From: Candidatus Magasanikiibacteriota bacterium
GTDB taxonomy: Bacteria; Patescibacteriota; Patescibacteriia; Magasanikbacterales; UBA922
Assembly (NCBI GenBank): GCA_003518365.1
Contig: DOYU01000021.1
Coordinates: 492 to 64,491, forward strand
Direction: 5' to 3'
Length of the DNA stretch: 64,000 nucleotides
Positions 5,492 to 27,987 of this stretch are shown here, in pieces. Position numbers and translations under genes: made by a program. The notes under the pieces were generated by a model. That model did not search any database, was not told the DNA's origin, and saw nothing but the letters and a program-made list of their open reading frames with translations. The number at the start of each line of letters is the position of its first letter. Position 1 is the stretch's first letter.

Positions 5492-5500
5492 CCATAAAAA

Positions 5501-5596
5501 CTCTCCCCCTAGTAGGGGGAGTTGGAGGGGGTTACCGCAGAAGCAAGAATAGTGGTAGTCCATAACCCCACCTTAATCCTCCCCTAGTAGGGGAGG
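5501..5596 (+). ncRNA. Two near-identical GC-stem hairpins with the same TAGTA loop, ~55 nt apart, immediately 3' of nrnA. Putative structured 3'-UTR element or small RNA.
   Basis: Read directly: CTCTCCCCC-TAGTA-GGGGGAG and CCTCCCC-TAGTA-GGGGAGG. Confidence 0.3.
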
Positions 5597-5606
5597 AAAT
5601 AATAAA

Positions 5607-5640
5607 AAAACAACTCACAAAAAATGTGAGCTGTTTTTTT
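5607..5640. terminator. Rho-independent terminator, bidirectional in form, after nrnA
   Basis: AAAAAAA-CAACTCACA-aaaaa-TGTGAGCTG-TTTTTTT: a stem-loop with A-run and T-run flanks. Confidence 0.7.
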
Positions 5641-5776
5641 ATTTCAAAAGGTTTCGTCTTTTGTCTTATGCTGAGAAGACTCATCAGTCCAGATATCATC
5701 TGAAAACCTCAATGCGACCCTGCAACACGATACCGAAGCATCGTGGCAGAGTCGCTGCAAGAGAACGTGGGAGGCA

Positions 5777-6274
5777 CTAGTACAGGTAGCGCACCACCTC
5801 GAACGTCTCAATTGCGCCTGGTTGCGGCGCAATCGGGACGAACGCCGAGATGTGCACGCCACCTTCCAGCCCGTCGACTTGGAAGACGTAGTCTTCCGTG
5901 TCCATGGTGAGGAACGCCCCACCGTAGACACCACCGTCGCCGGTGACGCCGAAGACCTCGATCTCGAAGATCATTCCGGCGTAGACCTGTACGGGGATCT
6001 CGCCGACGAACTCGTACTCGAACAGCGCGATGTCCGGATCGATGGGATCCCAGACCTGTTGCGCAAAGCCTGCCTCGTCCACCACGGTCAGCCGACAGAC
6101 CGAGATGCACTCGACCCACGCCAAGGGCGGGGTGATGGTCTCATCGCTCGGCGTCGTCGTGTCCACCTGCTCGGGGCAGGCGGCCTGGACGGGCGCGAGG
6201 GTGTCGGAGTCGCAGGCGGCGGCGAGGGTCAGGGTCAGGGTCAGGGCGATGGTGGCGACGAAGAAGCTACGCAT
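5777..6274 (-). CDS. Secreted lipoprotein, copy 1 of a tandem paralogous family, on the GC-rich island
   Basis: Internal Met at MRSFFVATIALTLTLTLAAACDSD (signal peptide plus lipobox Cys), with GGAGGA 8 nt upstream. C-terminal region FEYEFVGEIPVQVYAGMIFEIEVFGVTGDGG resembles copies 2 and 3. Sequence is visibly GC-rich. Confidence 0.6.
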   Translation of the reverse strand: MRSFFVATIALTLTLTLAAACDSDTLAPVQAACPEQVDTTTPSDETITPPLAWVECISVCRLTVVDEAGFAQQVWDPIDPDIALFEYEFVGEIPVQVYAGMIFEIEVFGVTGDGGVYGGAFLTMDTEDYVFQVDGLEGGVHISAFVPIAPQPGAIETFEVVRYLY

Positions 6275-6423
6275 CGGAATCCTCCGGTGATGCGGTCTCA
6301 CGATGTACTTTACTACAGCATTTCTGCAGCAAGCACGATCGAATGAACCGCACCACCAACATGTTCTCTTGCATTGTAAAAAGCATGTCAAAAGAGGTAC
6401 TTGTGTCCTATTTTGAACGGCTG

Positions 6424-6452
6424 AATATAACATAAAAACACACTTTTGTCAA
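6424..6452 (-). promoter_or_regulatory. Putative sigma70 promoter for lipoprotein copy 1
   Basis: On the minus strand: TTGACA, a 17-18 nt spacer, then TATATT, about 150 nt upstream of the start. Confidence 0.4.
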
Positions 6453-6516
6453 GTGTATAACTAAAAAAATTGCCTTATGTTAGCAATTTTCTTCTTTTTT
6501 AGAAGTTTGCAAACAG

Positions 6517-6560
6517 TCGACGCAGCGCACTCCGAAGAGCGCGCCGCGTCGACCGCGAAG
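6517..6560. terminator. GC-rich palindrome 3' of lipoprotein copy 2. A homologous copy sits at 7318-7375, 3' of copy 3.
   Basis: GTCGACGC...CTCCGAAGAG...GCGTCGAC. The related sequence GCGCAGCGC-TGCAACTCCGAAGAGTGCGCGCC follows copy 3. Confidence 0.45.
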
Positions 6561-6565
6561 AAAGA

Positions 6566-7102
6566 TCAGATGCCGTCTTGCCATCCGGGGTCGTAGACCA
6601 CTTGAATGGTGTACCTGCTCCCAGGTGTCCAGTCGTAGATGGGAAATCTCAGCTTTGGTGAGGTCTCGACACCATCATTGACTCGCAGGAGAAATTTGAA
6701 CATGAGGTTGTGGGACACGAGTTCGAGTGTCACACCGCCATTCATAGGGGGCGCGACCATCAGCTCGACCTCGATCTCTGCACCTTCAAGGAGCTGAAAA
6801 TCGAAGATCTCGTTACTCGCGAGATACTCATCGAGCGTAGGTCCCTCTTCATCACTCACATAGTACTCTCCATGAAAGAACCAAATGGGAGCGACCTCCC
6901 CATCCGGCAGGGTGACCGTCACCTTCCACACACCATTGGCCCAGAGAGAAGCGAAGGCTCCTTCTCCACCATAATGAAAGGTGATGCTTGGCTCAGAGGA
7001 ATCTTCCTCCTGCGGAATTTCCACATCTGGAAGGATGGTGGTGTCACAGCCGCCAGAGCTGTAGACGAAACCGAACAGAGCGAGAAAGATAAGTGCGTGC
7101 AT
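6566..7102 (-). CDS. Secreted lipoprotein, copy 2 of the tandem family
   Basis: Internal Met at MHALIFLALFGFVYSSGGCD (lipobox). LDEYLASNEIFDFQLLEGAEIEVELMVAPPMNGGVTLELVSHN aligns with copy 3. Confidence 0.65.
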   Translation of the reverse strand: MHALIFLALFGFVYSSGGCDTTILPDVEIPQEEDSSEPSITFHYGGEGAFASLWANGVWKVTVTLPDGEVAPIWFFHGEYYVSDEEGPTLDEYLASNEIFDFQLLEGAEIEVELMVAPPMNGGVTLELVSHNLMFKFLLRVNDGVETSPKLRFPIYDWTPGSRYTIQVVYDPGWQDGI

Positions 7103-7116
7103 GAAATACCTCAGTG

Positions 7117-7166
7117 TGAATGCGACCATTCGTCAACGTACGGGACCACCCCGCACGTAAACGTAT
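7117..7166 (-). promoter_or_regulatory. Conserved 5' leader element shared by lipoprotein copies 2 and 3. The second copy is at 7917-7965.
   Basis: About 50 nt are nearly identical directly upstream of both start codons: GAAT(G/A)CGACCATTCGTCA(A/G)CGTACGGGACCACCCCG(C/A)AC...AAACGTATC. It contains a CGGG-ACCAC-CCCG hairpin. Confidence 0.45.
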
Positions 7167-7376
7167 CAATCACATCCACATGACGTTGATCTTTCAAACG
7201 TATGATACCATACGTTTGACAGTAAAAAATAGCAGAAAAAACAATTTTGTCAAGTGTCCAAATAAAAAATTGCCTCATATTAGCAATTTCAAATATTTTT
7301 CAAAAGTGAAGCGAAGCGGCCGGCGCAGCGCTGCAACTCCGAAGAGTGCGCGCCACGCCGGTCGCAAGGTGAGAGA

Positions 7377-7895
7377 TCAGGAGCAGGTGCCGTCCGGCAC
7401 GAGCTCCACGAAGTAGGCACGAGGTTCACCCACCGATGTGTAGATGGGCAGATAACACGTGGGCACTCCCCGGTTATTCGTGAACTGATACGCCTGTTGA
7501 TGGGAGACCAAGGTCATCTGCTCGGCACCATTCTCTGGTGGAGATTCGATGAGCTCGACATGGATGGTCTGTCCCTCTGTCAGCTCAAAATCCAGGAACT
7601 CATTCTCCGCCAGGTAGCCATCCAGCTTCCCGGCATCTTCATCAAGGACTTCGTACGGTCCAAGAGAGCGCCAAATCGAAGCAGCAGACCCGTCCGGATT
7701 AAGAACGCTGATCTCGCAGGCTCCTCGGCACCAAAAGGTTCCAAAGTTCTTCTCTCCGAGGTCATGCACTACAACTTTTGCGCCGTCTGCCTTCCCGACC
7801 TTTGGTGTGTCGGATATGCCCTCAATGTCCACATCGCAACCACCAATGAAGATGGCGACCAGCGCAAGAATCATGGTGATAATCGTGAGATGCAT
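7377..7895 (-). CDS. Secreted lipoprotein, copy 3 of the tandem family
   Basis: Internal Met at MHLTIITMILALVAIFIGGCD, with GGAGGA upstream. LDGYLAENEFLDFELTEGQTIHVELIESPPENGAEQMTLVSHQ is paralogous to copy 2. Confidence 0.65.
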   Translation of the reverse strand: MHLTIITMILALVAIFIGGCDVDIEGISDTPKVGKADGAKVVVHDLGEKNFGTFWCRGACEISVLNPDGSAASIWRSLGPYEVLDEDAGKLDGYLAENEFLDFELTEGQTIHVELIESPPENGAEQMTLVSHQQAYQFTNNRGVPTCYLPIYTSVGEPRAYFVELVPDGTCS

Positions 7896-8201
7896 CGCGT
7901 CCTCCATAGAAGTATGAATACGACCATTCGTCAGCGTACGGGACCACCCCGAACACAAACGTATCTGCCGCATCCATACTTCTGTGATCTCTCAAAAATA
8001 TCATATCAAACTAGGAGTATTTTTCCTAGTTTGAATAGATGAAGATAGCGTATTTTGCGACGTTTGTCAATATATTAAATATCTGGCTGTATTGCTTACG
8101 CATGTTTCATTGTCAAATTGTTACATTGTTATATTGTTGATGATATTAAATAGATTGATATATGATAATTGTTATTTGCTATCTGAAATGTTAGCACTCT
8201 C

Positions 8202-8230
8202 TTGACAAGACTGATAATCTTCTCTATGCT
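8202..8230 (+). promoter_or_regulatory. Sigma70-type promoter for clpP
   Basis: TTGACA, a 17 nt spacer, then TATGCT, about 55 nt upstream of the clpP ATG. Confidence 0.5.
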
Positions 8231-8284
8231 ATACTTCTTTACATAATCTATTTCTAGTTACCAGTTACTGGTTCCTAGTCCCCT

Positions 8285-8875
8285 ATGTTTATGCATTCTC
8301 AATACCTCATCCCAACCGTCATCGAAAAAACATCACACGGTGAACGTGCATACGATATTTACTCTCGCCTTTTGAAAGATCGCATTATTTTTCTTGGCAG
8401 CGCGATCGATGACGGCGTCGCAAATACCATCATCGCTCAGCTCCTCTTCCTGGCAAATCAAGACGCGGAAAAAGATATCAAACTCTATATCAACTCCCCT
8501 GGTGGATCCGTCACCGCAGGTATGGCCATCTACGACACCATGCAATTTGTAAAACCACATGTTTCGACGATTTGTATCGGCATGGCAGCAAGTATGGGAT
8601 CAGTCCTCCTCGCAGCAGGAGAAAAAGGAAAACGTTTTGTCCTCCCAAATAGTGAAGTGATGATTCATCAAGTCCTCGGTGGGACACAAGGGCAAGCAAG
8701 TGATATTCAGATTCATGCAGAACGCATTGTCAAAATGAAAAAACATCTGAATGAAATTCTTGCAAAACACTGTGGCCAAACATTTGAAAAAGTAGAAAAA
8801 GACGCAGACCGAGATTACTTCATGAGTGCGGAAGAAGCTGTGACATACGGACTTGTGGACAAAGTTATATCGTAG
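8285..8875 (+). CDS. clpP: ATP-dependent Clp protease proteolytic subunit
   Basis: [11 protein letters not shown]...[20 protein letters not shown]...[14 protein letters not shown]...MIHQ places the catalytic Ser, His and Asp in context. Confidence 0.95.
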
Positions 8876-8904
8876 TTCACGAGTCACTTAACACGTAGCA
8901 CGAA

Positions 8905-9135
8905 ACAATCTTACTCTGAACGGGAGGAAACCTTGCCAGGCAAGACTACGCTTCGCTAAGATTATGTTTCACCTACGGTGAAACAAGATTGAAGATTACT
9001 TCACAAAAAGAAGGACATGCATGATATGCATGTCCTTCTTAGCATGTAACATAATCTTCAATCTTTTTTGCCGTAAGGCAAAAGTAATCTTAGTGGAGCG
9101 AAGCGAAACGCAATCTTACGTTGCACTAGGACACA
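8905..9135. repeat. Imperfect palindrome of about 230 bp between convergent genes. It has a perfect 15 bp central hairpin, branch hairpins and AATCTTAC direct repeats. Candidate structured ncRNA or compound bidirectional terminator.
   Basis: The arms pair CGCTTCGCTAAGATTA with TAATCTTAG-GCGAAGCG, and GATTGAAGATTA with TAATCTTCAATC. The centre is AAGAAGGACATGCAT-gat-ATGCATGTCCTTCTT at ~9008-9040. Side hairpins are GTTTCACC-tacg-GTGAAAC and TTTTGCC-gtaa-GGCAAAA. Confidence 0.5.
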
Positions 9136-9170
9136 CGTTGTCACATACTATGTGACTCGTGTCTCGTGAA

Positions 9171-10364
9171 CTACGTGAACAAAACAAACACACTATACAC
9201 TGCTCCAACAGTCAACACGAGCAAGAGCAATGCACCAAGGAGTGCGATATGATGCAATTTATATTTTCCAGGATCAAGATCACCCAATTTTTTTGCGCGC
9301 CAATAAATCAGAAGAATGAGCAACATCTCAATACTACCAAACACACCACCGACAATATTGATCGCGGCAACAAATTGTCGAAGACCTAATAAAAAAATGA
9401 TACAAGGAATACCAAGTGTCACCACCGTCGCAATGCGCCCACTCATATGATAATCCCATGACAGTGAATCTTTGAGCGATACACCATTGAGCAAAAAGCT
9501 GGTCGCCATGGCAAAGAATGCAAACGCATTGCCAAACAAAAACAACGTGTGGCCGAGCCTATTGCCAAGGCCTATCGTTGCAATTTCTGTTGTCCCCTGT
9601 CCTGTCACCCCTACAACGACGAGCGCAAATGTCAGATACAGCGCCATGACGAGCAACCCTCCTATGAGGATCGCGCGACGAAATGCTCCGTTATCATCTT
9701 TCAAAAGGGCATGTATCTCAGGCACTGCTGTCGTACCATGGAGAGAAAATAAGACCACACCATAGGGAAGAAAGAGATAGGCAAGATTTGTGGTATAGAG
9801 ATGGGTGATGTCAATATGTGGCACACTCAGTGACGTGATAAACAACACAATCACCAAAATGCCAATGGTGAGAATCAGTTCAGCGGTCTTCACAGTGCGA
9901 AGCCCGAGCATCACAAGGAGTGCTGCGAATACAAAGAACACCAGACTCCACTCTACGCTACTGCCCCCAAAGAGCGCAGCAAGCGTTTCCCCTTCTCCAA
10001 TCAGATAAATCACGAGCGCGCCAAACAGCATGCCATACATCATGACGGTCATGATCATCCCGCCTGCCTTTCCTAAATATTTTTTTGCAAACCCAACGAG
10101 CTGAAACGACCCATGTGTTCTCACTGCGACTTCGCCAAGCATGAGATTCAGTCCGATCATAAGCGCGCCTAAGCCAATAATATAGAGCACCCCAATCAAC
10201 ACACCCGCTTGTGCTACAGCATAGGGCAATCCGAGCACTCCAGCACCGATCGTCCCACTGATCATGAGTGCAACGCCTTCAGCCATAGAAAGTTTGCGTC
10301 GAAAAATTCCTTGATGCATGGCAAGGTCTGTGATTTCTAGTTGTGGGCGTTTTCGAAAGAACAT
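9171..10364 (-). CDS. Amino-acid permease, Aa_trans / aromatic amino acid (Trp/Tyr) permease-like, 11-12 TM
   Basis: Highly hydrophobic. N-terminal SMAEGVALMISGTIGAGVLGLPYAVAQAG resembles amino-acid/H+ symporters. The start is ambiguous between 10364 and 10319. Confidence 0.55.
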   Translation of the reverse strand: MFFRKRPQLEITDLAMHQGIFRRKLSMAEGVALMISGTIGAGVLGLPYAVAQAGVLIGVLYIIGLGALMIGLNLMLGEVAVRTHGSFQLVGFAKKYLGKAGGMIMTVMMYGMLFGALVIYLIGEGETLAALFGGSSVEWSLVFFVFAALLVMLGLRTVKTAELILTIGILVIVLFITSLSVPHIDITHLYTTNLAYLFLPYGVVLFSLHGTTAVPEIHALLKDDNGAFRRAILIGGLLVMALYLTFALVVVGVTGQGTTEIATIGLGNRLGHTLFLFGNAFAFFAMATSFLLNGVSLKDSLSWDYHMSGRIATVVTLGIPCIIFLLGLRQFVAAINIVGGVFGSIEMLLILLIYWRAKKLGDLDPGKYKLHHIALLGALLLLVLTVGAVYSVFVLFT

Positions 10365-11732: not shown

Positions 11733-14399
11733 TTATGACAACGTATCTACCAATGAGTCTGCCAATCCAATATATTTTTCTGGTGTCAGTGTAAAAAGAA
11801 ATTGTTTGTCTTCTTCAGAAATATCAAGTGTTGCGACAAAATTCCTAATTGTTAGGCTATCAAGTCGTGTTCCCCTACTCAATTCTTTTAATCGTTCATA
11901 CGCATCCTGCTGTCCATACTTTCGCAACATGGTTTGGATTGCTTCGGTAACGATTTCCGGATGTGCCTGCAATTCTTGCACAAGCGCAGACTGATTTGGG
12001 GTAATCGTAGCCATTCCTTTTATCATACTTTTTACTGCCAAGAATGCATGCGCAAGTGCTACGCCTTGATTGCGTATCATTGTGCTTCCGCTAAGATCTC
12101 TTTGCATACGTGAGACTGGCAGATGCGTCGCCAATGTTGTAAACAATCCGTTGGCAAGAGCAATATTGCCTTCAGCATGTTCAAAGTGAATCGGATTTAC
12201 TTTATGCGGCATGGTACTTGATCCAACATGTTCTTTCTCTACCATTTGTCCAAACATTCCTCGACTAATATAGAGCCACATGTCTCGCGCCAGATCGAGA
12301 AGGATGGTATTTATACGAGAAACAATCTGATAACTTTCTGCAAGTGAATCATATGTATTGACTTGCGTCGTGAGCAGTAATTGTTCAAAGCCAAGGCTTG
12401 CAAGAAATGATTTGTGAAATCGAGGCCAGTCCACGTGCGCATCGAGTATCTGGTGTGCAGCAAACGTTCCTGTTGCCCCACTGCACTTTGCATCAAATGT
12501 CATGTTTGTAAGATTCGCACGCTGCTTTTTCAGTCTCTCTACAAAGACGGCAATTTCTTTCCCGACCGTAGTGGGTGTTGCCGCTTGTCCATGCGTGAGG
12601 GCAAGCATGGGGAGTCTCGCATGTGTCTTTGCAAATGTGGTTAGTGTGCTCATCAATCTATCAAGCGTTGGAACAAAGACCGTGCTCAGTGAATCACGCC
12701 AGAGTGACAGATATGCAATGTTATTGATATCTTCTGATGTCAGTGCGATATGAATAAAGGGAATTGCATGTGAAAGACCAAGCAATGGCAATCGTTCTTG
12801 CAAAAATATTTCAACGGCTTTTACATCATGATGAATCCTTTTTTCAATCTGTTTTACACGCGCAGCATCTTCGAGAGAAAACAATGTTGAAATGTTTCTA
12901 AGCTGCTCTTTTTGTATGTCTGAAAACGAAACCAACGCCGTGAAGGTTGTTTCTTCTGCGAGTGCAATAAGATATGCAATTTCAATATGCACACGAGAGC
13001 GAATCAATGCGTATTCTGAATGATATGCTGCAAGTTCTTGGACTTGTTCATAATATCGTCCGTCGATTGGGGAAATAGCAGTCAATGCGTTGTCAGCACC
13101 TTCTGCAAGATGTGAAGACAACACAACGGTTTCTGAACGCTTTGGACCAAATGACACAATACCGATCGGACACCCGACTTCTTTTTCTATGAAAGAGAGA
13201 TATGTCTGCACTGCAGGGTCAAATCCTTGCATCGTTGTTGGCATCTCGCCTGTGTACACCTGTTGCCATCCAGAGAGCGTGGTGTACACGGGCTGCGCCT
13301 TTCGCATGTCAGACAAACTTGCCGGCATTTCGTGAACAAGTTTTCCATCAATATAATACGCCGTACATACCTTCAATTCATCAAATCCATTCAAGACATC
13401 GAGCTTTGTAATTGCAATTTCAGTGAGTGGATGTACGCGGGCACTTTGCCTTACTTGCACCAAATCAAGCCAACCAATGCGACGCGCTCTCCCTGTCGTT
13501 GTCCCATATTCTTGTCCAAGTTCGCGGATACGGTCCCCGACCGAATCAGTCAATTCTGTCACAAACGGACTTGTCCCGACACGACTAACGTATGCTTTTA
13601 CCACACCGACAATCCGCTTTGGCGCATTGATGCCAAGTCCACTTCCGACTTCTGCGTGCGCTGCGACATTGTTTGAACTTGTCGTATGTGGATACAATCC
13701 ATGATCAGGATCGAGTGACATTCCTTGTGCTCCTTCAAAAAGGATACGTTTCCCTGCTGTATACGCGTGTGCGAGTTCCACTTCGGTATCAGCAATATAT
13801 TGTTTGAGTTGTTGTCCGTATGCAAGATATTGATTCGTGATTTCTTCTTTTGAAGATTGGAAGGTGCCACGAAGAACATTGGTAATCATGCCCACGTTGA
13901 AATCATACGCTTTGTCCAATTTTTCTCGAAACAGCTCTGGCTCGAGCAAATCGCCCATACGAATTCCATGGCGATACATTTTATCTGCATAGACCGGGGC
14001 AATACCACGCTTGGTGCTTCCGGCAGCGAGCGCACCCTGATGCCCAGAGAGTGCTTCATCCATGGCAATGTGATACGGCATGATGACATGCGCGCGTTCG
14101 CTGATAGCAAGTTTCAGTGGTCTACCGTTTTTTGTGATTTCTGCGATTTCTCCGAGAAGCACGCTGGGATCAATGACAACGCCATTTCCTATCACAGAAT
14201 GGGTGTGTTCAGATACCACGCCACAGGGCAACAGATGCAATTTGTATGTTTGTTCTCCAACGACAATCGTATGCCCAGCATTATTTCCTCCGTGAAATCG
14301 AACAACATACTCTGCATCACTCGCAAGCACATCTGTGATTTTTCCTTTCCCCTCATCCCCCCATTGAGCACCCACGACAACGGTTGTTTGTGGTTTCAT
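11733..14399 (-). CDS. purA-purB: Fused adenylosuccinate synthetase (PurA, N-terminal ~425 aa) and adenylosuccinate lyase (PurB, C-terminal ~445 aa) in one 888-aa ORF
   Basis: N-terminus VVVGAQWGDEGKGKITD...GGNNAGHT is the PurA P-loop. Junction ...IVSFGPKRSETVVLSSHLAEGADNALTAISPIDGRYYEQ... has no stop; I checked it by reading the DNA. The C-terminus carries the fumarate-lyase signature GSSTMPHKVNP and the PurB start motif SPIDGRY. Confidence 0.85.
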   Translation of the reverse strand: MKPQTTVVVGAQWGDEGKGKITDVLASDAEYVVRFHGGNNAGHTIVVGEQTYKLHLLPCGVVSEHTHSVIGNGVVIDPSVLLGEIAEITKNGRPLKLAISERAHVIMPYHIAMDEALSGHQGALAAGSTKRGIAPVYADKMYRHGIRMGDLLEPELFREKLDKAYDFNVGMITNVLRGTFQSSKEEITNQYLAYGQQLKQYIADTEVELAHAYTAGKRILFEGAQGMSLDPDHGLYPHTTSSNNVAAHAEVGSGLGINAPKRIVGVVKAYVSRVGTSPFVTELTDSVGDRIRELGQEYGTTTGRARRIGWLDLVQVRQSARVHPLTEIAITKLDVLNGFDELKVCTAYYIDGKLVHEMPASLSDMRKAQPVYTTLSGWQQVYTGEMPTTMQGFDPAVQTYLSFIEKEVGCPIGIVSFGPKRSETVVLSSHLAEGADNALTAISPIDGRYYEQVQELAAYHSEYALIRSRVHIEIAYLIALAEETTFTALVSFSDIQKEQLRNISTLFSLEDAARVKQIEKRIHHDVKAVEIFLQERLPLLGLSHAIPFIHIALTSEDINNIAYLSLWRDSLSTVFVPTLDRLMSTLTTFAKTHARLPMLALTHGQAATPTTVGKEIAVFVERLKKQRANLTNMTFDAKCSGATGTFAAHQILDAHVDWPRFHKSFLASLGFEQLLLTTQVNTYDSLAESYQIVSRINTILLDLARDMWLYISRGMFGQMVEKEHVGSSTMPHKVNPIHFEHAEGNIALANGLFTTLATHLPVSRMQRDLSGSTMIRNQGVALAHAFLAVKSMIKGMATITPNQSALVQELQAHPEIVTEAIQTMLRKYGQQDAYERLKELSRGTRLDSLTIRNFVATLDISEEDKQFLFTLTPEKYIGLADSLVDTLS

Positions 14400-23220: not shown

Positions 23221-24198
23221 ATGTCTAAACAAACACCTACCAATAATCTCGCTATCTACCAAGCTAAAAACGGCGCGATTGAATTTCGCGGTGATTTTGA
23301 GCAAGAGACGGTTTGGGGAAATTTAAATCAAATTGCCGATCTTTTTGGTCGCGACAAGTCCGTTGTTTCCCGCCATATAAAAAACATCTATAAAACAGGC
23401 GAATTAAACGAAACGGCAACTGTTGCAAAAATTGCAACAGTTCAAAAGGAAGGAAGGAGAGAAGTGATGCGTGAAATTGAGTACTTCAACCTTGATGTTA
23501 TTTTGTCCGTTGGGTACAGAGTAGATTCCAAGCAAGCCACGCAATTCCGCAAATGGTCAACGCAAGCGCTCAAGGCACACCTTGTAGACGGGTATACCAT
23601 CAACAAAAAACGCATCGGTAATAACTACGAACACTTTTTGCGTGCAGTGGCAGAAACAAAAGCACTCCTCCCTGTGGGCAACAAGGTTTCTACCGAGGAT
23701 ATACTTGAACTCGTGAACGCATTTGCTGCTACGTGGTTTTCGCTCGATGCATATGACAAAGACGCATTTCCTCAAAAAACAGCCTCAAAAAAGTCAGTTT
23801 CAGTTGACACTGTAAAGCTACTCAATGCGATTGGTGAGTTGAAGCAAGAACTGATAACCAAAAAGCAAGCAACAAACCTATTTGCACAAGAAAGGAAGAC
23901 GGGAACAGTAGAAGGAATCGTCGGAAATGTATTTCAGTCTGCCTTTGGCAAAGATGTATATCCAAGTATAGAAGAAAAGGCCGCACACATCCTCTACTTC
24001 ATGGTAAAAAATCATCCATTCACCGATGGCAACAAGCGCAGCGGAGCCTTTGCATTTGTTTGGTTTCTACGAAAAGCTGGTTTACTCCGACCAAGTCTTA
24101 CTCCAGAAGCGTTGACTGCCATTACCCTCCTCATTGCAGAGAGTAATCCAAAAGATAAAGACAAAATGGTGGGACTAGTGGTGATGTTAATCAAATAA
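23221..24198 (+). CDS. RhuM-family N-domain fused to a Fic/Doc-type C-domain
   Basis: RhuM-like N-terminus: NLAIYQAKNGAIEFRGDFEQETVWGNLNQIADLFGRDKSVVSRHIKNI...YFNLDVILSVGYRVDSKQATQFRKWSTQ. C-terminal HPFTDGNKRSG matches the Doc/Fic motif HxFx(D/N)GNKR. Confidence 0.7.
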   Translation: MSKQTPTNNLAIYQAKNGAIEFRGDFEQETVWGNLNQIADLFGRDKSVVSRHIKNIYKTGELNETATVAKIATVQKEGRREVMREIEYFNLDVILSVGYRVDSKQATQFRKWSTQALKAHLVDGYTINKKRIGNNYEHFLRAVAETKALLPVGNKVSTEDILELVNAFAATWFSLDAYDKDAFPQKTASKKSVSVDTVKLLNAIGELKQELITKKQATNLFAQERKTGTVEGIVGNVFQSAFGKDVYPSIEEKAAHILYFMVKNHPFTDGNKRSGAFAFVWFLRKAGLLRPSLTPEALTAITLLIAESNPKDKDKMVGLVVMLIK

Positions 24199-24200
24199 CT

Positions 24201-25322
24201 ATGGCAAATAAAAACCTTACAAAAGCAAAAAAGGCAAAAAATGATGAATTTTATACTCAATTTTCAGATATTCAAAAAGAAGTTGAGTCTTATCTTGAGT
24301 ATAACCCAGATACTTTTAAAGATAAGATAATTTACAGTAATTGTGACGACCCGTTCGAAAGTAATTTCTTTCGCTATTTTGTATTAAATTTTGATCGTTT
24401 AGGACTAAAGAGACTTATTTCAACGAGCTACAAACCCTCACCTGTTGCCAATACGCAACTGGGATTATTTGGCGATGACAAAACACTTGAAAAAGTAAAA
24501 GGCCGTCCAAAAGTAACCGCTAACAAATTCATCATCAACGAAGTTGGCGATATCGACGGCGACGGCTCTTTTACGCTAGAAGATATTGCCCAACAGCTTC
24601 GAGCGAATAAAAATAACGAATGGACTCCGCTTGAGGGCGATGGTGATTTTAGAAGTGCCGAATGTGTCGAGTTGCTCAAACAATCTGACATCGTAGTTAC
24701 TAATCCTCCATTTAGTTTATTCCGTGAATATATTACGCAACTTTTCGAACACAAAAAGCAATTTCTAATTATTGGTAGCATGAACTCAATTACTTACAAA
24801 GAAATCTTTGTGTTGATTAAAAATAATAAATTGTGGTTAGGTAATGGGTTTAATGCTGGCAATGCATATTTTTCAACTCCCAATGCGCGAAAAGATTTTG
24901 CTTCTGGTGTGTATGATGAAAAAACTGGTCTTGTAAAATTTCGGAATTGTCATTGGTTTACTAATTTAGATCATGGTCGTCGTCATCAGCCTCTTAATCT
25001 GATGACAACAAATGAAAACCTAAGATTTAATAAAAAAATGCAAGGCAAAACTACTTATGATCGTTATGACAATTATGACGCTATTGATGTACCATTTACA
25101 AAAGCTATCCCTTCTGACTACGAAGGAGTAATGGGTGTTCCTATAAGCTTTCTCGATAAGTACAATCCTAATCAGTTTGAGATATTGGGCTCTGACACAG
25201 ACATAAAAGAAGGTAAACTTCCACTTTTAATAATAAGTAAATGGAATGGAAAGCTAGACAGAGGTTATATACATGGAAAGAGAATCTTCAGTAGAATGTT
25301 TATTAAGCACAAAAAGAAATAA
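24201..25322 (+). CDS. N6-adenine DNA methyltransferase (NPPF motif), tentatively EcoRI-methylase-like family
   Basis: TNPPF catalytic motif in [15 protein letters not shown]-terminal [10 protein letters not shown] block. Starts 3 nt after the upstream stop. Confidence 0.6.
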
Positions 25323-25323
25323 T

Positions 25324-26487
25324 ATGAAAACAACCTTAAAAAATGATATCACCGTTAAAGAAGTTTGCGACGGCTTTGAATACAACGAATTTGAAGGAAA
25401 AGGTTTGTTTGGTCTCTCTGGCAAACTAACTATTCAGCCAGAGTATCAGCGTAATTATATTTATGCTGACGGCAAACGTGACGTTGCTGTAATTGACTCA
25501 ATTTTAAAGGGTTATCCTATCGGTTTGATCTATTTCAATCAGGCTGGTAAAGACGAGTTTGAAGTATTAGATGGTCAACAGCGCATCACGAGTATAGGTC
25601 GTTTTGTTACTGGCAAATTTGCTGTTAAAGATAAAAACGGTCACGAGCAATACTACAGCGGTATGTCTGAGAGTCAGCGTGAGCAAATTATGAAGACTAA
25701 GTTGTTGGTGTATGTGTGCGAAGGTGACGAGCCTGAGATCAAAGATTGGTTCAAGACTATTAACATTGCTGGAGTGCCATTAACTGAACAAGAGATTCTT
25801 AACGCGGTATATTCTGGGCCATTCGTTACTCGAGCTCGTGAAGAGTTTAGTAATAGTCAAAATACCAACATCCAGAAATGGAGTGCGTACATCGCAGGTG
25901 ATATCAAGCGTCAGGCATACTTGGAACGAGCTCTAGATTGGGTTTCTGATGGATCAATCGATAGTTATATGAGCAAACACCGCAATGACAAAAATATTAC
26001 TGAACTAAAAAAACATTTTGATACTATCATTGACTGGGTCTCAACTATCTTTACTGACGTTGAGAGCGATATGAAAGGCCTTGAGTGGAACAGGATTTAT
26101 GAGACATATCACAAGAAGAAATACAATCCGACTACCATCTCTGCTTCTGTTCAGAAGCTCTATGCTGATGGTTTCGTAAAAAGTCGCAAAGGCATTTTTG
26201 AATATGTTTTAGGCGGAGAAGTTGAAACTAAACTACTTGAAATACGAGTATTTGAGGACTCAACAAAACGTTCAGTTTACGAAGCTCAAACTGCTATTGC
26301 AAAGAAAAAAGGTGTTTCAAACTGTCCACATTGTGCTATTGGGCATGATGCCAATAAAGAAAAAATTTGGACTTTAAGCGATATGGATGCTGATCATGTG
26401 GCTGCTTGGAGTAAAGGTGGAAAAACGGAAGCAAAAAACTGTGAGATGTTGTGTAAAACGCATAATCGTGCCAAAGGTAATCGGTAA
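25324..26487 (+). CDS. DUF262 (ParB/Srx-like) N-domain plus C-terminal HNH nuclease; GmrSD/SspE-like architecture
   Basis: DUF262 hallmark [11 protein letters not shown]...[13 protein letters not shown]-terminal CPHCAIGHD...[12 protein letters not shown]...[10 protein letters not shown] (CxxC...DH...N...CxxHN). Start MKTTLK sits 2 nt after the MTase stop. Confidence 0.65.
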
Positions 26488-26493
26488 AATATT

Positions 26494-27987
26494 ATGCACC
26501 TCACAAAAACCGACTATCTCGAATATACCTTTTGCAAAAAGAACCTTTGGCTCAAAAAACATAAGCCAGAGCTTTTTGAAGATGTAGAATTGTCGGAATT
26601 TGAAAAAAAAATTATTGAGGAAGGGAATTTGGCTGATGAGGCTGCAAGAAATTTATTTCCTGATGGAGAATTGATCGGTATCGTCGGAGTAAATGCTATA
26701 CCTGTTACAAAAAAGATACTGGAGAAAAACCCACCAGTATTATTTCAAGGTGCATTTTCATTCAATGACTTTTTTGTTCAAGCGGATATTTTACGTTACA
26801 ACGACATTTTAAAGGGTTGGGAACTTTACGAAGTAAAAGCAACAAATGATGTAAAACGAGAAATCCCTCATCACCATATCAACGACCTTGCGTTTCAAAA
26901 AATTGTAATTGAACAAAATGGGATACACATTATAAAAGCAGGCGTTATTCACCTTAACGGCGAATATAGACAACGAGGCAAAGTAAACTATAACGAACTG
27001 TTCATCATTGCCGAGCTTACTGATGAAGTACTAGAAGCGGAAGAACTTGTACGTGGGCAGATGCGTGATATTCACACATATATGGACATGGCAGAAGAAA
27101 AAAATTGTGAATGTTTGTATCGAGGTAGAAATGCACAATGTACAACGTTCGCTTACTCTAATCCTGAAGTGCCTGAATACTCTGTTCACGATATCAATAG
27201 AATTGGCGGAAGCAAAAAACTGTTTTTTGACTGGATAGATAGAGGGATCTACCGGCTCGAAGATATAGATAACCCAGAAAATCTTACAGGATCAAAAAAG
27301 GCACAATATACTGCGTACATAACAGGTAAGCCTCTCATAGACAAAGAAGCAATACAAAAAGAACTTGGTGAATTGGTTTTTCCTCTCCAATTTTTTGATT
27401 ACGAAGGATATTCTAGTGCTATCCCCAGCTTTAACGGCTTCGGTGCGTATGAACAAGTGCCTTTTCAATATTCACTACATACGCTCCATGAAGACGGAAC
27501 GCTTGAACACCGAGAATATCTCATCACAGAGCCAGAGAATGATTTGACTTTGCCATTGGTAGAAAGAATGAAAGAAGACTTTGATGATGTTGGTACTGTC
27601 ATATCTTGGTACAAATCATACGAATCACAACGAAACGACAAACTAGCAGAACTTCATCCAAATCATGCAGACTTTCTTATTGGCCTCAATGACAGAATGT
27701 TTGACCTCATGACAATGTTTTCCAAAAATTATTATGTGGATGCACGGTTCAAAGGGAGTGCAAGCATAAAAAATGTTCTGCCGGTCATTGTACCGGAATT
27801 AACGTACAAAGTACTTGGTATTCAAAAAGGAGATCAAGCAGTAGAACGTTGGGAAAAAATGATATTTGCAGATATTCATCCAGATGAAAAGAAAGAAATA
27901 AAAAAAGATTTGCTTGAGTATTGCAAATTGGATACTTTGGCGATGGTGAGGATTTGGGAGTTTCTAATGAAAATAAAAAATGTATGA
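26494..27987 (+). CDS. DUF2779-family protein (predicted PD-(D/E)xK-like nuclease N-domain plus RNase-H-like C-domain)
   Basis: N-terminal LTKTDYLEYTFCKKNLWL and C-terminal YCKLDTLAMVRIW are the blocks I recall for DUF2779. The identification is from memory, not searched. Confidence 0.5.
   Translation: MHLTKTDYLEYTFCKKNLWLKKHKPELFEDVELSEFEKKIIEEGNLADEAARNLFPDGELIGIVGVNAIPVTKKILEKNPPVLFQGAFSFNDFFVQADILRYNDILKGWELYEVKATNDVKREIPHHHINDLAFQKIVIEQNGIHIIKAGVIHLNGEYRQRGKVNYNELFIIAELTDEVLEAEELVRGQMRDIHTYMDMAEEKNCECLYRGRNAQCTTFAYSNPEVPEYSVHDINRIGGSKKLFFDWIDRGIYRLEDIDNPENLTGSKKAQYTAYITGKPLIDKEAIQKELGELVFPLQFFDYEGYSSAIPSFNGFGAYEQVPFQYSLHTLHEDGTLEHREYLITEPENDLTLPLVERMKEDFDDVGTVISWYKSYESQRNDKLAELHPNHADFLIGLNDRMFDLMTMFSKNYYVDARFKGSASIKNVLPVIVPELTYKVLGIQKGDQAVERWEKMIFADIHPDEKKEIKKDLLEYCKLDTLAMVRIWEFLMKIKNV

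Follow-up and report, generated by a model that had tools for sequence, protein, structure and literature searches.

A predicted frame of end-to-end paired mRNA structure around tandem lipoprotein genes of a Candidatus Magasanikbacteria genome

The stretch of DNA considered here (64 kb in total and referred to as the window) belongs to the metagenome-assembled genome of an uncultivated Candidatus Magasanikbacteria organism from groundwater. Between 5.6 and 8.1 kb, its minus strand encodes three paralogous genes in tandem, whose protein products (165–178 aa) start with lipoprotein signal peptides that end in LAAAC, SSGGC, and FIGGC for copies 1, 2, and 3, respectively. The array is flanked by clpP and a DHH-family gene, and the genome has a GC content of 43%. 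The question raised by this locus is why a short block of DNA in front of copies 2 and 3 has remained nearly identical. The original prediction described a leader of ~50 nt containing an internal hairpin, behind which came another hairpin of the form CAAAC...GTTTG, and considered the leader to be a candidate cis-regulatory RNA. From the analysis presented here, the conserved block is probably minus-strand RNA that forms the apex and 3' arm of an imperfect hairpin of ~80 nt and ~31 bp, itself part of a frame of structured elements that would govern the fate of the mRNA.

The order of elements in this frame, read along the sense strand, is a promoter, a 5'-terminal hairpin, a short sequence termed box A, the long hairpin, a Shine-Dalgarno (SD) sequence and open reading frame (ORF), a second short sequence termed box A', a GC-rich 3' hairpin, and an AT-rich intrinsic terminator. 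All seven complete cassettes share this order. Three of them are the cassettes of the window (c1, c2, and c3, numbered as the lipoprotein copies) and four are relatives (La, Lb, L009, and L011) from three other Magasanikbacteria populations. Cassettes La (copy-3-like) and Lb (copy-1-like) make up the clpP-linked orthologous locus of one further Magasanikbacteria species, while L009 and L011 were recovered with the contigs of distant lipoproteins.

The conserved block as part of a long hairpin

On the plus strand, the sequences at 7117–7166 and 7915–7965 are equal at 45 of 51 aligned positions (88%). The 17-mer CGGGGTGGTCCCGTACG at the center of the leader has two exact copies in the window where 0.03 are expected. 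As originally proposed, the leader was kept while the genes diverged, since the coding sequences (CDS) of c2 and c3 are 56% identical. A base-by-base comparison of cassettes 2 and 3 gave an identity of 62% for the promoter, 61% for the 5' hairpin, 46% for the region from the SD sequence to the ATG, and about 84–85% for a 62-nt core of the long hairpin. With similarity this uneven, the objection that the leaders are alike only through a very recent duplication fails.

The boundaries and anatomy of the leader had to be redrawn. The conserved core is longer than ~50 nt, extending over 7116–7177 and 7914–7975. Both CAAAC...GTTTG hairpins exist, the first at 7195–7218 and the second at 8006–8034 rather than at ~7995–8020. 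Because the lipoprotein genes are encoded by the minus strand, these hairpins do not follow the leader but precede it, at the predicted 5' end of the transcript. In place of a 50-nt leader with a small internal hairpin and a second hairpin behind it, the conserved sequence supplies the apex and the 3' arm of one ~31-bp hairpin. The palindrome from which the internal hairpin was deduced, GAATGcgacCATTC (GAAUGgucgCAUUC), is real; however, it is disrupted in La (GUCUG...CAUUC), which instead keeps the other pairing open to these bases, that with the 5' arm. Thus, the palindrome is not the conserved structure.

The folding energies of the seven long hairpins lie between −32 and −43 kcal/mol, and their z-scores between −4.4 and −8.2. 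For six of these hairpins, the sense strand is more stable than the antisense strand by 12–20 kcal/mol because of 5–7 G-U pairs. The values are −40.8 kcal/mol sense and −22.6 antisense for c3 (z = −6.2), −42.7/−38.3 sense and −23.4/−22.4 antisense for c2 (z about −6.5), and −42.6 sense and −24.7 antisense for c1 (z = −8.2), which also covaries with Lb and L011. A covariance model of the long hairpin, built from c2, c3, and La, scores 100–109 bits on the sense strand and 17–24 bits on the antisense strand (99.9 for c3; 106 sense versus 23.6 antisense for c2). The same model detects the divergent leader of L009 with 32 bits (E = 7e-6). In an alignment of five sequences, 97% of the cells are paired compared to 28–42% when the partners are slid, and 12 of 23 hairpin pairs have changed on both sides, which was reached by none of 500 shuffles. 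Among the stem-column substitutions of the c2/c3/La type, one is a double change, seven are single changes compatible with wobble pairing, and one breaks a pair. For the c1 type, there are two double and six single changes along with three breaks. One apex change specific to La is compensatory, replacing G-C with A-U. The sequences of the c1-type and c2/c3-type hairpins are unrelated. In La, the 3' arm of the long hairpin also carries a single population-level nucleotide polymorphism (C/U; L018, 2620–2718, compared to L019, 6576–6674) that converts a G-C pair to G-U.

With a length of 22–32 bp, the long hairpins fall within the range expected of RNase III substrates, for which at least ~20 bp of mostly Watson-Crick duplex is taken as the criterion. 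They are single extended hairpins, and the conserved multi-helix junction and invariant unpaired core of a riboswitch were not observed. An intrinsic attenuator in the leader was rejected as the long hairpin is followed on its 3' side by the SD sequence and not by a U-rich sequence.

The suggestion of selection on RNA structure was borne out by the compensatory and wobble-compatible changes, by the sense-strand-specific fold, and by the divergence of the untranslated regions (UTRs), which is far below synonymous divergence. Between c1 and Lb, divergence is 0.08 in the 5'-UTR and 0.20 in the 3'-UTR, with a synonymous divergence (dS) of 0.47 and a nonsynonymous divergence (dN) of 0.15. The corresponding values for c3 and La are 0.17, 0.18, 1.8, and 0.49, and the paralogs c2 and c3 differ by 0.27 in the 5'-UTR and 0.24 in the 3'-UTR with dS saturated. 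For clpP, comparison of the window organism with the second species gave a dS of 0.90 and a dN of 0.03. Overall, the UTRs have diverged 4–10 times less than synonymous sites. Copy 1 and the L011 gene (protein P0011) are only 26% identical at the protein level, with dN/dS of ~1.1 and a UTR divergence (K) of 0.14–0.21, and the proteins of c2, c3, and La are only 34–45% identical. Purifying selection on base pairing conserves the frame, while the ORFs inside it evolve very fast between conserved flanks; the latter suggests either diversifying selection or cassette replacement. The label of a cis-regulatory element is plausible for the leader. The coordinates compared were 5777–6274 (copy 1) against L011 808–1326 and 7377–7895 (copy 3) against L019 6672–7205; the L009 ORF spans 301–912.

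A predicted closing helix between the ends of the message

The long hairpin is one module of the frame, to which are added the 5'-terminal hairpin, a covarying helix that closes the 5' and 3' regions onto each other, and a 3' hairpin capped by a UUCG loop. Each lipoprotein gene is predicted to give a monocistronic mRNA from its own sigma-70-type promoter, and the top three sigma-70-type matches of the region are the promoters of the three window cassettes (Table 1). An equivalent of the 5'-terminal hairpin is found in seven of seven cassettes with a different inner stem sequence. The cassette 3 hairpin, with a U-rich stretch behind it, was marked as terminator-like in a consensus scan. As the cassette 2 equivalent lacks a U tract, the cassettes do not have a promoter-proximal attenuator in common. 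At the other end of the message, the 3' hairpins covary across cassettes and present a cUUCGg loop in six of seven, the one without it being L009.

In each cassette, box A' is complementary to box A, although the two sequences differ between types. They read GAGAGAUCA and UGAUCUCUC in c3 and La, and UUGAGAGAUCAGA and UCUGAUCUCUCAA in L009, while the boxes of Lb and L011 are variants of the c1 pair. When the boxes are aligned in a fixed register, 7 of 13 pairs have changed on both sides (matched by 0 of 500 shuffles) and 82% of the cells pair, compared to 30–50% when the boxes are slid. The A:A' helix of 9–14 bp bridges 600–700 nt and is present in the minimum free energy (MFE) structures of all seven predicted full-length transcripts (757–912 nt) with mean pair probabilities of 0.86–0.99. 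All nine pairs are found in the MFE structures of c3 (mean probability 0.97) and c2 (0.93), the latter with one compensatory change from G-C to A-U relative to c3, and 13 of 14 pairs are found in that of c1.

The UGA stop codon of c2, c3, and La provides the first three bases of box A'; in c1, Lb, L009, and L011, box A' starts 7–14 nt past the stop codon. Box A ends 0–1 nt short of the long hairpin, and box A' ends 0–5 nt short of the 3' hairpin in six of seven cassettes. With helix ends this close, the A:A' helix could stack with the long hairpin and the 3' hairpin, and the stacked helices could amount to as much as ~60–65 bp of near-continuous double-stranded RNA. A predicted pairing and its maintenance by compensatory change, two features of mRNAs with interacting 5'- and 3'-UTRs, were both observed, with few independent lineages contributing; the long-range pairing is the prediction of an energy model.

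Table 1. Elements of the three lipoprotein cassettes, listed from cassette 3 to cassette 1. Positions are those of the window; energies are in kcal/mol; GC3, GC content at third codon positions.
Feature	Position	Strand	Details
Cassette 3 promoter (predicted)	8042–8070	−	TTGACA-17-TATCTT; 10/12 match; predicted start ~8034
Cassette 3 5'-terminal hairpin	8006–8034	−	UCAAACUAGGA...UCCUAGUUUGA; nt 1–29 of predicted transcript
Cassette 3 box A	7985–7994	−	UGAGAGAUCA; partner is box A' 7379–7370
Cassette 3 long 5'-UTR hairpin	7905–7986	−	~31–33 bp, 5-nt loop; includes the leader copy first placed at 7917–7965 (apex and 3' arm)
Lipoprotein copy 3 ORF	7377–7895	−	172 aa; lipobox IGGC; SD GGAGG at 7905–7901
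Cassette 3 box A'	7370–7379	−	UGAUCUCUCA; begins with the stop codon
Cassette 3 GC-rich 3' hairpin	7316–7365	−	cUUCGg loop; −38.1; covaries with c2 and La
Intrinsic terminator after cassette 3	7264–7289	−	AAAUUGC-loop-GCAAUUUUUU; repeat family shared with cassette 2 terminator
Cassette 2 promoter (predicted)	7226–7253	−	TTGACA-16-TGcTATTTT; 10/12 match; extended −10 TG
Cassette 2 5'-terminal hairpin	7195–7218	−	CAAACGUAUG-guau-CAUACGUUUG
Cassette 2 box A	7187–7195	−	GAAAGAUCA; partner 6568–6560
Cassette 2 long 5'-UTR hairpin	7108–7186	−	~31–33 bp, 5-nt loop; includes leader 7117–7166 (3' arm and apex)
Cassette 2 SD GAGG	7112–7109	−	within stem base of long hairpin
Lipoprotein copy 2 ORF	6566–7102	−	178 aa
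Cassette 2 box A'	6560–6568	−	UGAUCUUUC; overlaps stop codon
Cassette 2 GC-rich 3' hairpin	6513–6556	−	20 bp, UUCG loop; −40.9 sense, −29.3 antisense
Intrinsic terminator after cassette 2	6464–6489	−	
Cassette 1 promoter (predicted)	6424–6452	−	TTGACA-17-TGtTATATT; 11/12 match
Cassette 1 5'-terminal hairpin	6388–6416	−	predicted transcript start ~6416
Cassette 1 box A	6360–6373	−	UGCAAGAGAACAUG; 14 nt, 93% complementary to 5756–5769
Cassette 1 long 5'-UTR hairpin	6286–6357	−	size and position as in c2 and c3; sequence unrelated
Lipoprotein copy 1 ORF	5777–6274	−	165 aa; lipobox LAAAC; GC3 87%
Cassette 1 box A'	5756–5769	−	CACGUUCUCUUGCA; begins 7 nt past stop codon
Cassette 1 GC-rich 3' hairpin	5714–5755	−	UUCG loop; adjoins box A'; −36.2 sense, −27.0 antisense
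Terminator closing the three-gene array	5601–5643	−	

Proposed function, known systems, and alternative explanations

To our knowledge, conserved pairing of the 5'-UTR with the 3'-UTR in one bacterial mRNA amounts to a handful of experimentally found cases (hbs, icaR, and RNAIII), and almost nothing is known about post-transcriptional control in bacteria of the Candidate Phyla Radiation (CPR). By analogy to hbs and icaR, the most likely function of the frame would be the control of mRNA stability and translation. The A:A' helix would close the message into a loop, and the terminal hairpins would shield both of its ends from exonucleases. The long duplex may act as a substrate or platform for a double-strand-specific factor, with RNase III being the most plausible. 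A terminating ribosome would cover box A', or nearly reach it, and would open or destabilize the closing helix each time. Since box A' is within or just beyond the footprint of the terminating ribosome, translation should repeatedly open or destabilize the helix. In this way, mRNA stability or re-initiation may be coupled to ongoing translation, as has been described for the hbs and icaR pairings.

A bolder proposal, which we regard as rather unlikely, treats the frame as a post-transcriptional chassis for hypervariable lipoproteins. The closed-loop mRNA would return terminating ribosomes to the start, or translation would hold open a rod sensitive to RNase III, and the frame would also serve as a recombination scaffold for new ORF variants of high GC3 (GC content at third codon positions). 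If this were true, the A:A' helix would set the stop codon beside the base of the long hairpin and the SD sequence, and the message would be translated only for as long as translation continues, being silenced or destroyed once it has stopped.

The hbs mRNA of Bacillus subtilis contains a 14-bp pairing between its 5'- and 3'-UTRs that modulates cleavage by RNase Y and ties stability to translation (Braun, Durand, and Condon 2017; PMC5737220). The frame resembles it in having a 5'/3'-UTR pairing, here of 9–14 bp across the whole ORF. The sequences are unrelated, however, and the 3' partner of the frame overlaps or directly follows the stop codon. Also different from hbs are the ~31-bp hairpin and the UUCG-capped 20-bp hairpin that flank the helix, as well as the reuse of the arrangement around several paralogous hypervariable genes.

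As summarized in PMC7821165 (after Ruiz de los Mozos 2013), a UCCCC sequence in the 3'-UTR of the Staphylococcus aureus icaR mRNA pairs with the SD sequence, which blocks translation and creates an RNase III site; PMC7821165 also describes 5'/3' pairing in RNAIII. Cassette 1 has an icaR-like feature. Its SD sequence GGAGG (6281–6285) is predicted to pair with a CCUCC located 3 nt past the stop codon (5770–5776) with a probability of ~0.87, and this anti-SD contact would be stacked on the A:A' helix. A CCUCC near the stop codon is also present in L011, where pairing with the SD sequence is not predicted. A general SD:anti-SD lock beside the stop codon was rejected since the pair probabilities back it in c1 only. 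In the other six cassettes, the 3' partner pairs not with the SD sequence but with box A upstream of the long hairpin; thus, anti-SD pairing is not the general mechanism here.

RNase III substrates are duplexes longer than 20 bp, and well-known processing stems include those that flank the rRNA operons, the leader hairpins of pnp and rnc, and the intercistronic sites of phage T7. The frame is similar in that these are imperfect duplexes of more than ~20 bp which form locally or from sequences flanking a long insert. There is no sequence similarity, and the flanked insert in the frame is a protein-coding ORF. Type I toxin mRNAs such as hok offer another comparison. Their fold-back (fbi) element pairs the 5' and 3' ends, and this pairing, conserved by covariation, leaves the full-length message inert before processing. 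Pairing of the ends closes a compactly folded mRNA in both cases; however, hok-type genes encode membrane toxins of ~50 aa with an antisense antidote RNA, and the cassettes encode lipoproteins of 160–200 aa with no antisense gene evident. Finally, a hairpin at the 5' end and a very stable hairpin at the 3' end are classical protection against exonucleases, as known from the stabilizing leaders of ompA, aprE, and ermC. The frame likewise has a hairpin 0–1 nt from the predicted 5' end, and its very stable 3' hairpin precedes the terminator. In the classical cases these are single elements, which leaves the long internal hairpin and the covarying closing helix unaccounted for.

Several points weigh against the proposal of an RNA frame that controls mRNA fate. 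The transcript ends, their processing, and any regulatory effect are predictions. Sequestration of the SD sequence is inconsistent among the cassettes and consequently no single translational mechanism is evident. The L009 long hairpin has no strand asymmetry. The five-sequence alignment was fitted to the model, with L009 alone giving most of the double changes, and within types RNAalifold finds just 1–2 double changes. As the frame is carried by only four populations or species, the covariation comes from few independent lineages. There is also mild conservation at unpaired positions, which could point to a specific protein partner.

This last point leads to the alternative that the long hairpin is an operator for a specific RNA-binding regulator, either a protein or a trans-acting RNA. 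It would explain the invariant unpaired or loop-adjacent stretches of the c2/c3/La type (GAUACGUUU, UGACG, and UGGUCG), the bulges and internal loops at equal positions in c2 and c3, and a core that is as conserved between species as housekeeping coding DNA is (85% versus 75–80%). However, slow evolution is expected of any long hairpin in which each single change is deleterious, and the fold has no multi-helix junction or pocket, no Rfam match, and no further copies in the window. Moreover, the c1-type sequence is wholly different and L009 is highly divergent, and yet length, position, and architecture are equal, from which it follows that the shared feature is duplex geometry. An operator thus seems an improbable explanation. 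A somewhat less probable one places the function at the level of DNA, with the A/A' boxes as inverted repeats for site-specific inversion (phase variation) or with the frames as homology arms for cassette exchange or duplication. Each ORF is indeed bracketed by inverted repeats of 9–14 bp that stay complementary despite changes on both sides, and the number of cassettes varies by species, with three in the window and two in L015/L019. An unrelated GC-rich ORF of L011 with a frame-type 3' end and the hypervariable ORFs between conserved flanks, as in the comparison of copy 1 with P0011, would also fit. For duplex DNA, however, the sense-strand stability that G-U pairs confer on the long hairpins and on two of the three 3' hairpins of the window (c1 and c2) is meaningless, and all elements of the frame lie inside the unit from promoter to terminator. 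Among the genes called up to about 10 kb away on both sides, and in ten further ORFs between 11.7 and 28 kb, there was no recorded recombinase family, and no target-site duplications were found. Inverted orientation was not seen in assembled contigs: those read for the window organism (12 loci representing ~29 public contigs) are collinear with 100% identity, and the seven cassettes all point the same way. Use of the frames as homology arms could coexist with an RNA function but leaves the compensatory changes inside the hairpins unexplained.

It is very unlikely that the block has no function and owes its similarity to a recent duplication, or to a tract of gene conversion between c2 and c3. 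Copies 2 and 3 are adjacent paralogs, and the hairpin apex CGGGGUGGUCCCG, which is equal in c2 and c3 and differs in La, would fit a short conversion tract; however, the La apex change is itself compensatory. The unevenness of identity between the CDS, promoter, and core is inconsistent with this explanation, as is the low divergence of the UTRs relative to synonymous sites. Across the 62 columns of the core, c2 and La are 82% identical and c3 and La 84%, so that the ortholog from the other species is as near to c2 and c3 as these are to each other. Paralogs and ortholog being equidistant, a recent gene-conversion tract is not the whole story. Between the window and the second species, the flanking housekeeping DNA is 75–80% identical compared to 85% for the c3/La leader. 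On these comparisons, the recent-duplication reading appears largely refuted. Least probable is that the block is coding, as a leader peptide, an upstream ORF, or an N-terminal extension of the lipoproteins in the annotated ORFs of 187 and 198 aa. ORFs do cross the leader, in the frame of the lipoprotein in c3 and La, a peptide IRLxxGWSRTLTNGRIHT is common to c2 and c3, and the public annotation starts copy 2 at 7129. In c2, however, the shared peptide is out of the lipoprotein frame and its start would be TTG. The changes between c3 and La are mostly nonsynonymous (S>A, W>Q, R>C, N>S, H>Q, and T>F) and yet pairing is kept, and SD motifs are found 5–7 nt before the downstream ATGs that open typical lipoprotein signal peptides.

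Structured UTRs with 5'/3' pairing are a known class; the combination seen here and its reuse around hypervariable paralogs in a CPR bacterium is new. No prior description of the frame was found in limited literature searches. Comparison of sequences across species reveals a covarying closing helix and two long hairpins that are kept as the proteins change. The frame provides an example of a structured cis-RNA in CPR bacteria which is, as far as could be found, uncatalogued, and its taxonomic range is narrow. At ~800 nt, the message is an easily synthesized object for studying end-to-end pairing, long duplexes, and terminating ribosomes in mRNA decay and translation. It also points to a fast-evolving and probably surface-exposed family of lipoproteins.

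Relatives, the lipoprotein family, and other features of the window

A protein profile search with HMMER against 1.84 billion representative proteins matched only the window copies and the distant lipoproteins P0011 and P0012; word-index searches added P0017. Other protein matches were giant repeat proteins and were discarded as spurious. An alignment of five of the proteins has no stretch of 7–10 columns that is conserved. The lipoprotein family is nearly orphan. The contigs of the distant lipoproteins were recovered as L009, L010, and L011. DNA-pattern scans of genomes and metagenomes identified the locus of the second Magasanikbacteria species as L015, L018, and L019. Two further matches of the genome scan, in Desulfatiglandales and Prevotella, were set aside as chance 19-mer matches. 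In viral contigs, the leader patterns had no match and the promoter-pattern scan returned generic strong phage promoters only.

A search of the whole window against Rfam 15 at the gathering threshold identified three tRNAs only. With permissive settings over 5500–8400, nothing was found near the leader and every match was far below threshold. Neither the leader motif nor the covariance model found other copies in the 64-kb window. Other GC-rich or strongly folding spots of the window (16.3–16.5, 41.0–41.3, and 42.3 kb) were considered and do not share the architecture.

Upstream of its cassette, L011 contains an unrelated GC-rich ORF (3–620; hhalign probability of 0.5% against the lipoprotein family) with the contig ending in its 5' part. 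It is followed by a UUCG-loop hairpin and an AAAUUGC...GCAAUUUUUUU terminator in the manner of the frame. From this frame-like 3' end, the frame may not be limited to one protein family.

The three lipoprotein copies were not assigned to a family by a Pfam search. The predicted structure of copy 2 is a β-sandwich of low accuracy (predicted local distance difference test, pLDDT = 59), and a Foldseek search of the model against the PDB identified no significant fold match. The lipoproteins are probably surface-exposed. Their ORFs have a GC3 of 61–94% (87% for copy 1 and 94% for L011), compared to 41% for the clpP and DHH genes that flank the window array, and their UTRs have a GC content of 41–50%. 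The high GC3 could stem from acquisition from a foreign source, from biased gene conversion at a recombination hot spot, or from selection favoring a highly structured message. This odd codon composition may be linked to interactions of the cell surface with hosts or phages.

Other features were observed in the window. The intergenic region between the convergent genes for clpP and an amino-acid permease (8876–9172) is predicted to adopt a 297-nt nested palindromic fold (−121.5 kcal/mol, z = −12). It is roughly strand-symmetric, is conserved in the second species, and has no Rfam match; it may be an elaborate bidirectional terminator or some other element. An 888-aa ORF on the minus strand (11733–14399) fuses the domains of adenylosuccinate synthetase (PurA) and adenylosuccinate lyase (PurB). 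On the plus strand, 23221–27987 encodes defence-type genes for a RhuM/Fic protein, an EcoRI-type adenine methyltransferase, a GmrSD-N restriction protein, and a DUF2779 protein.

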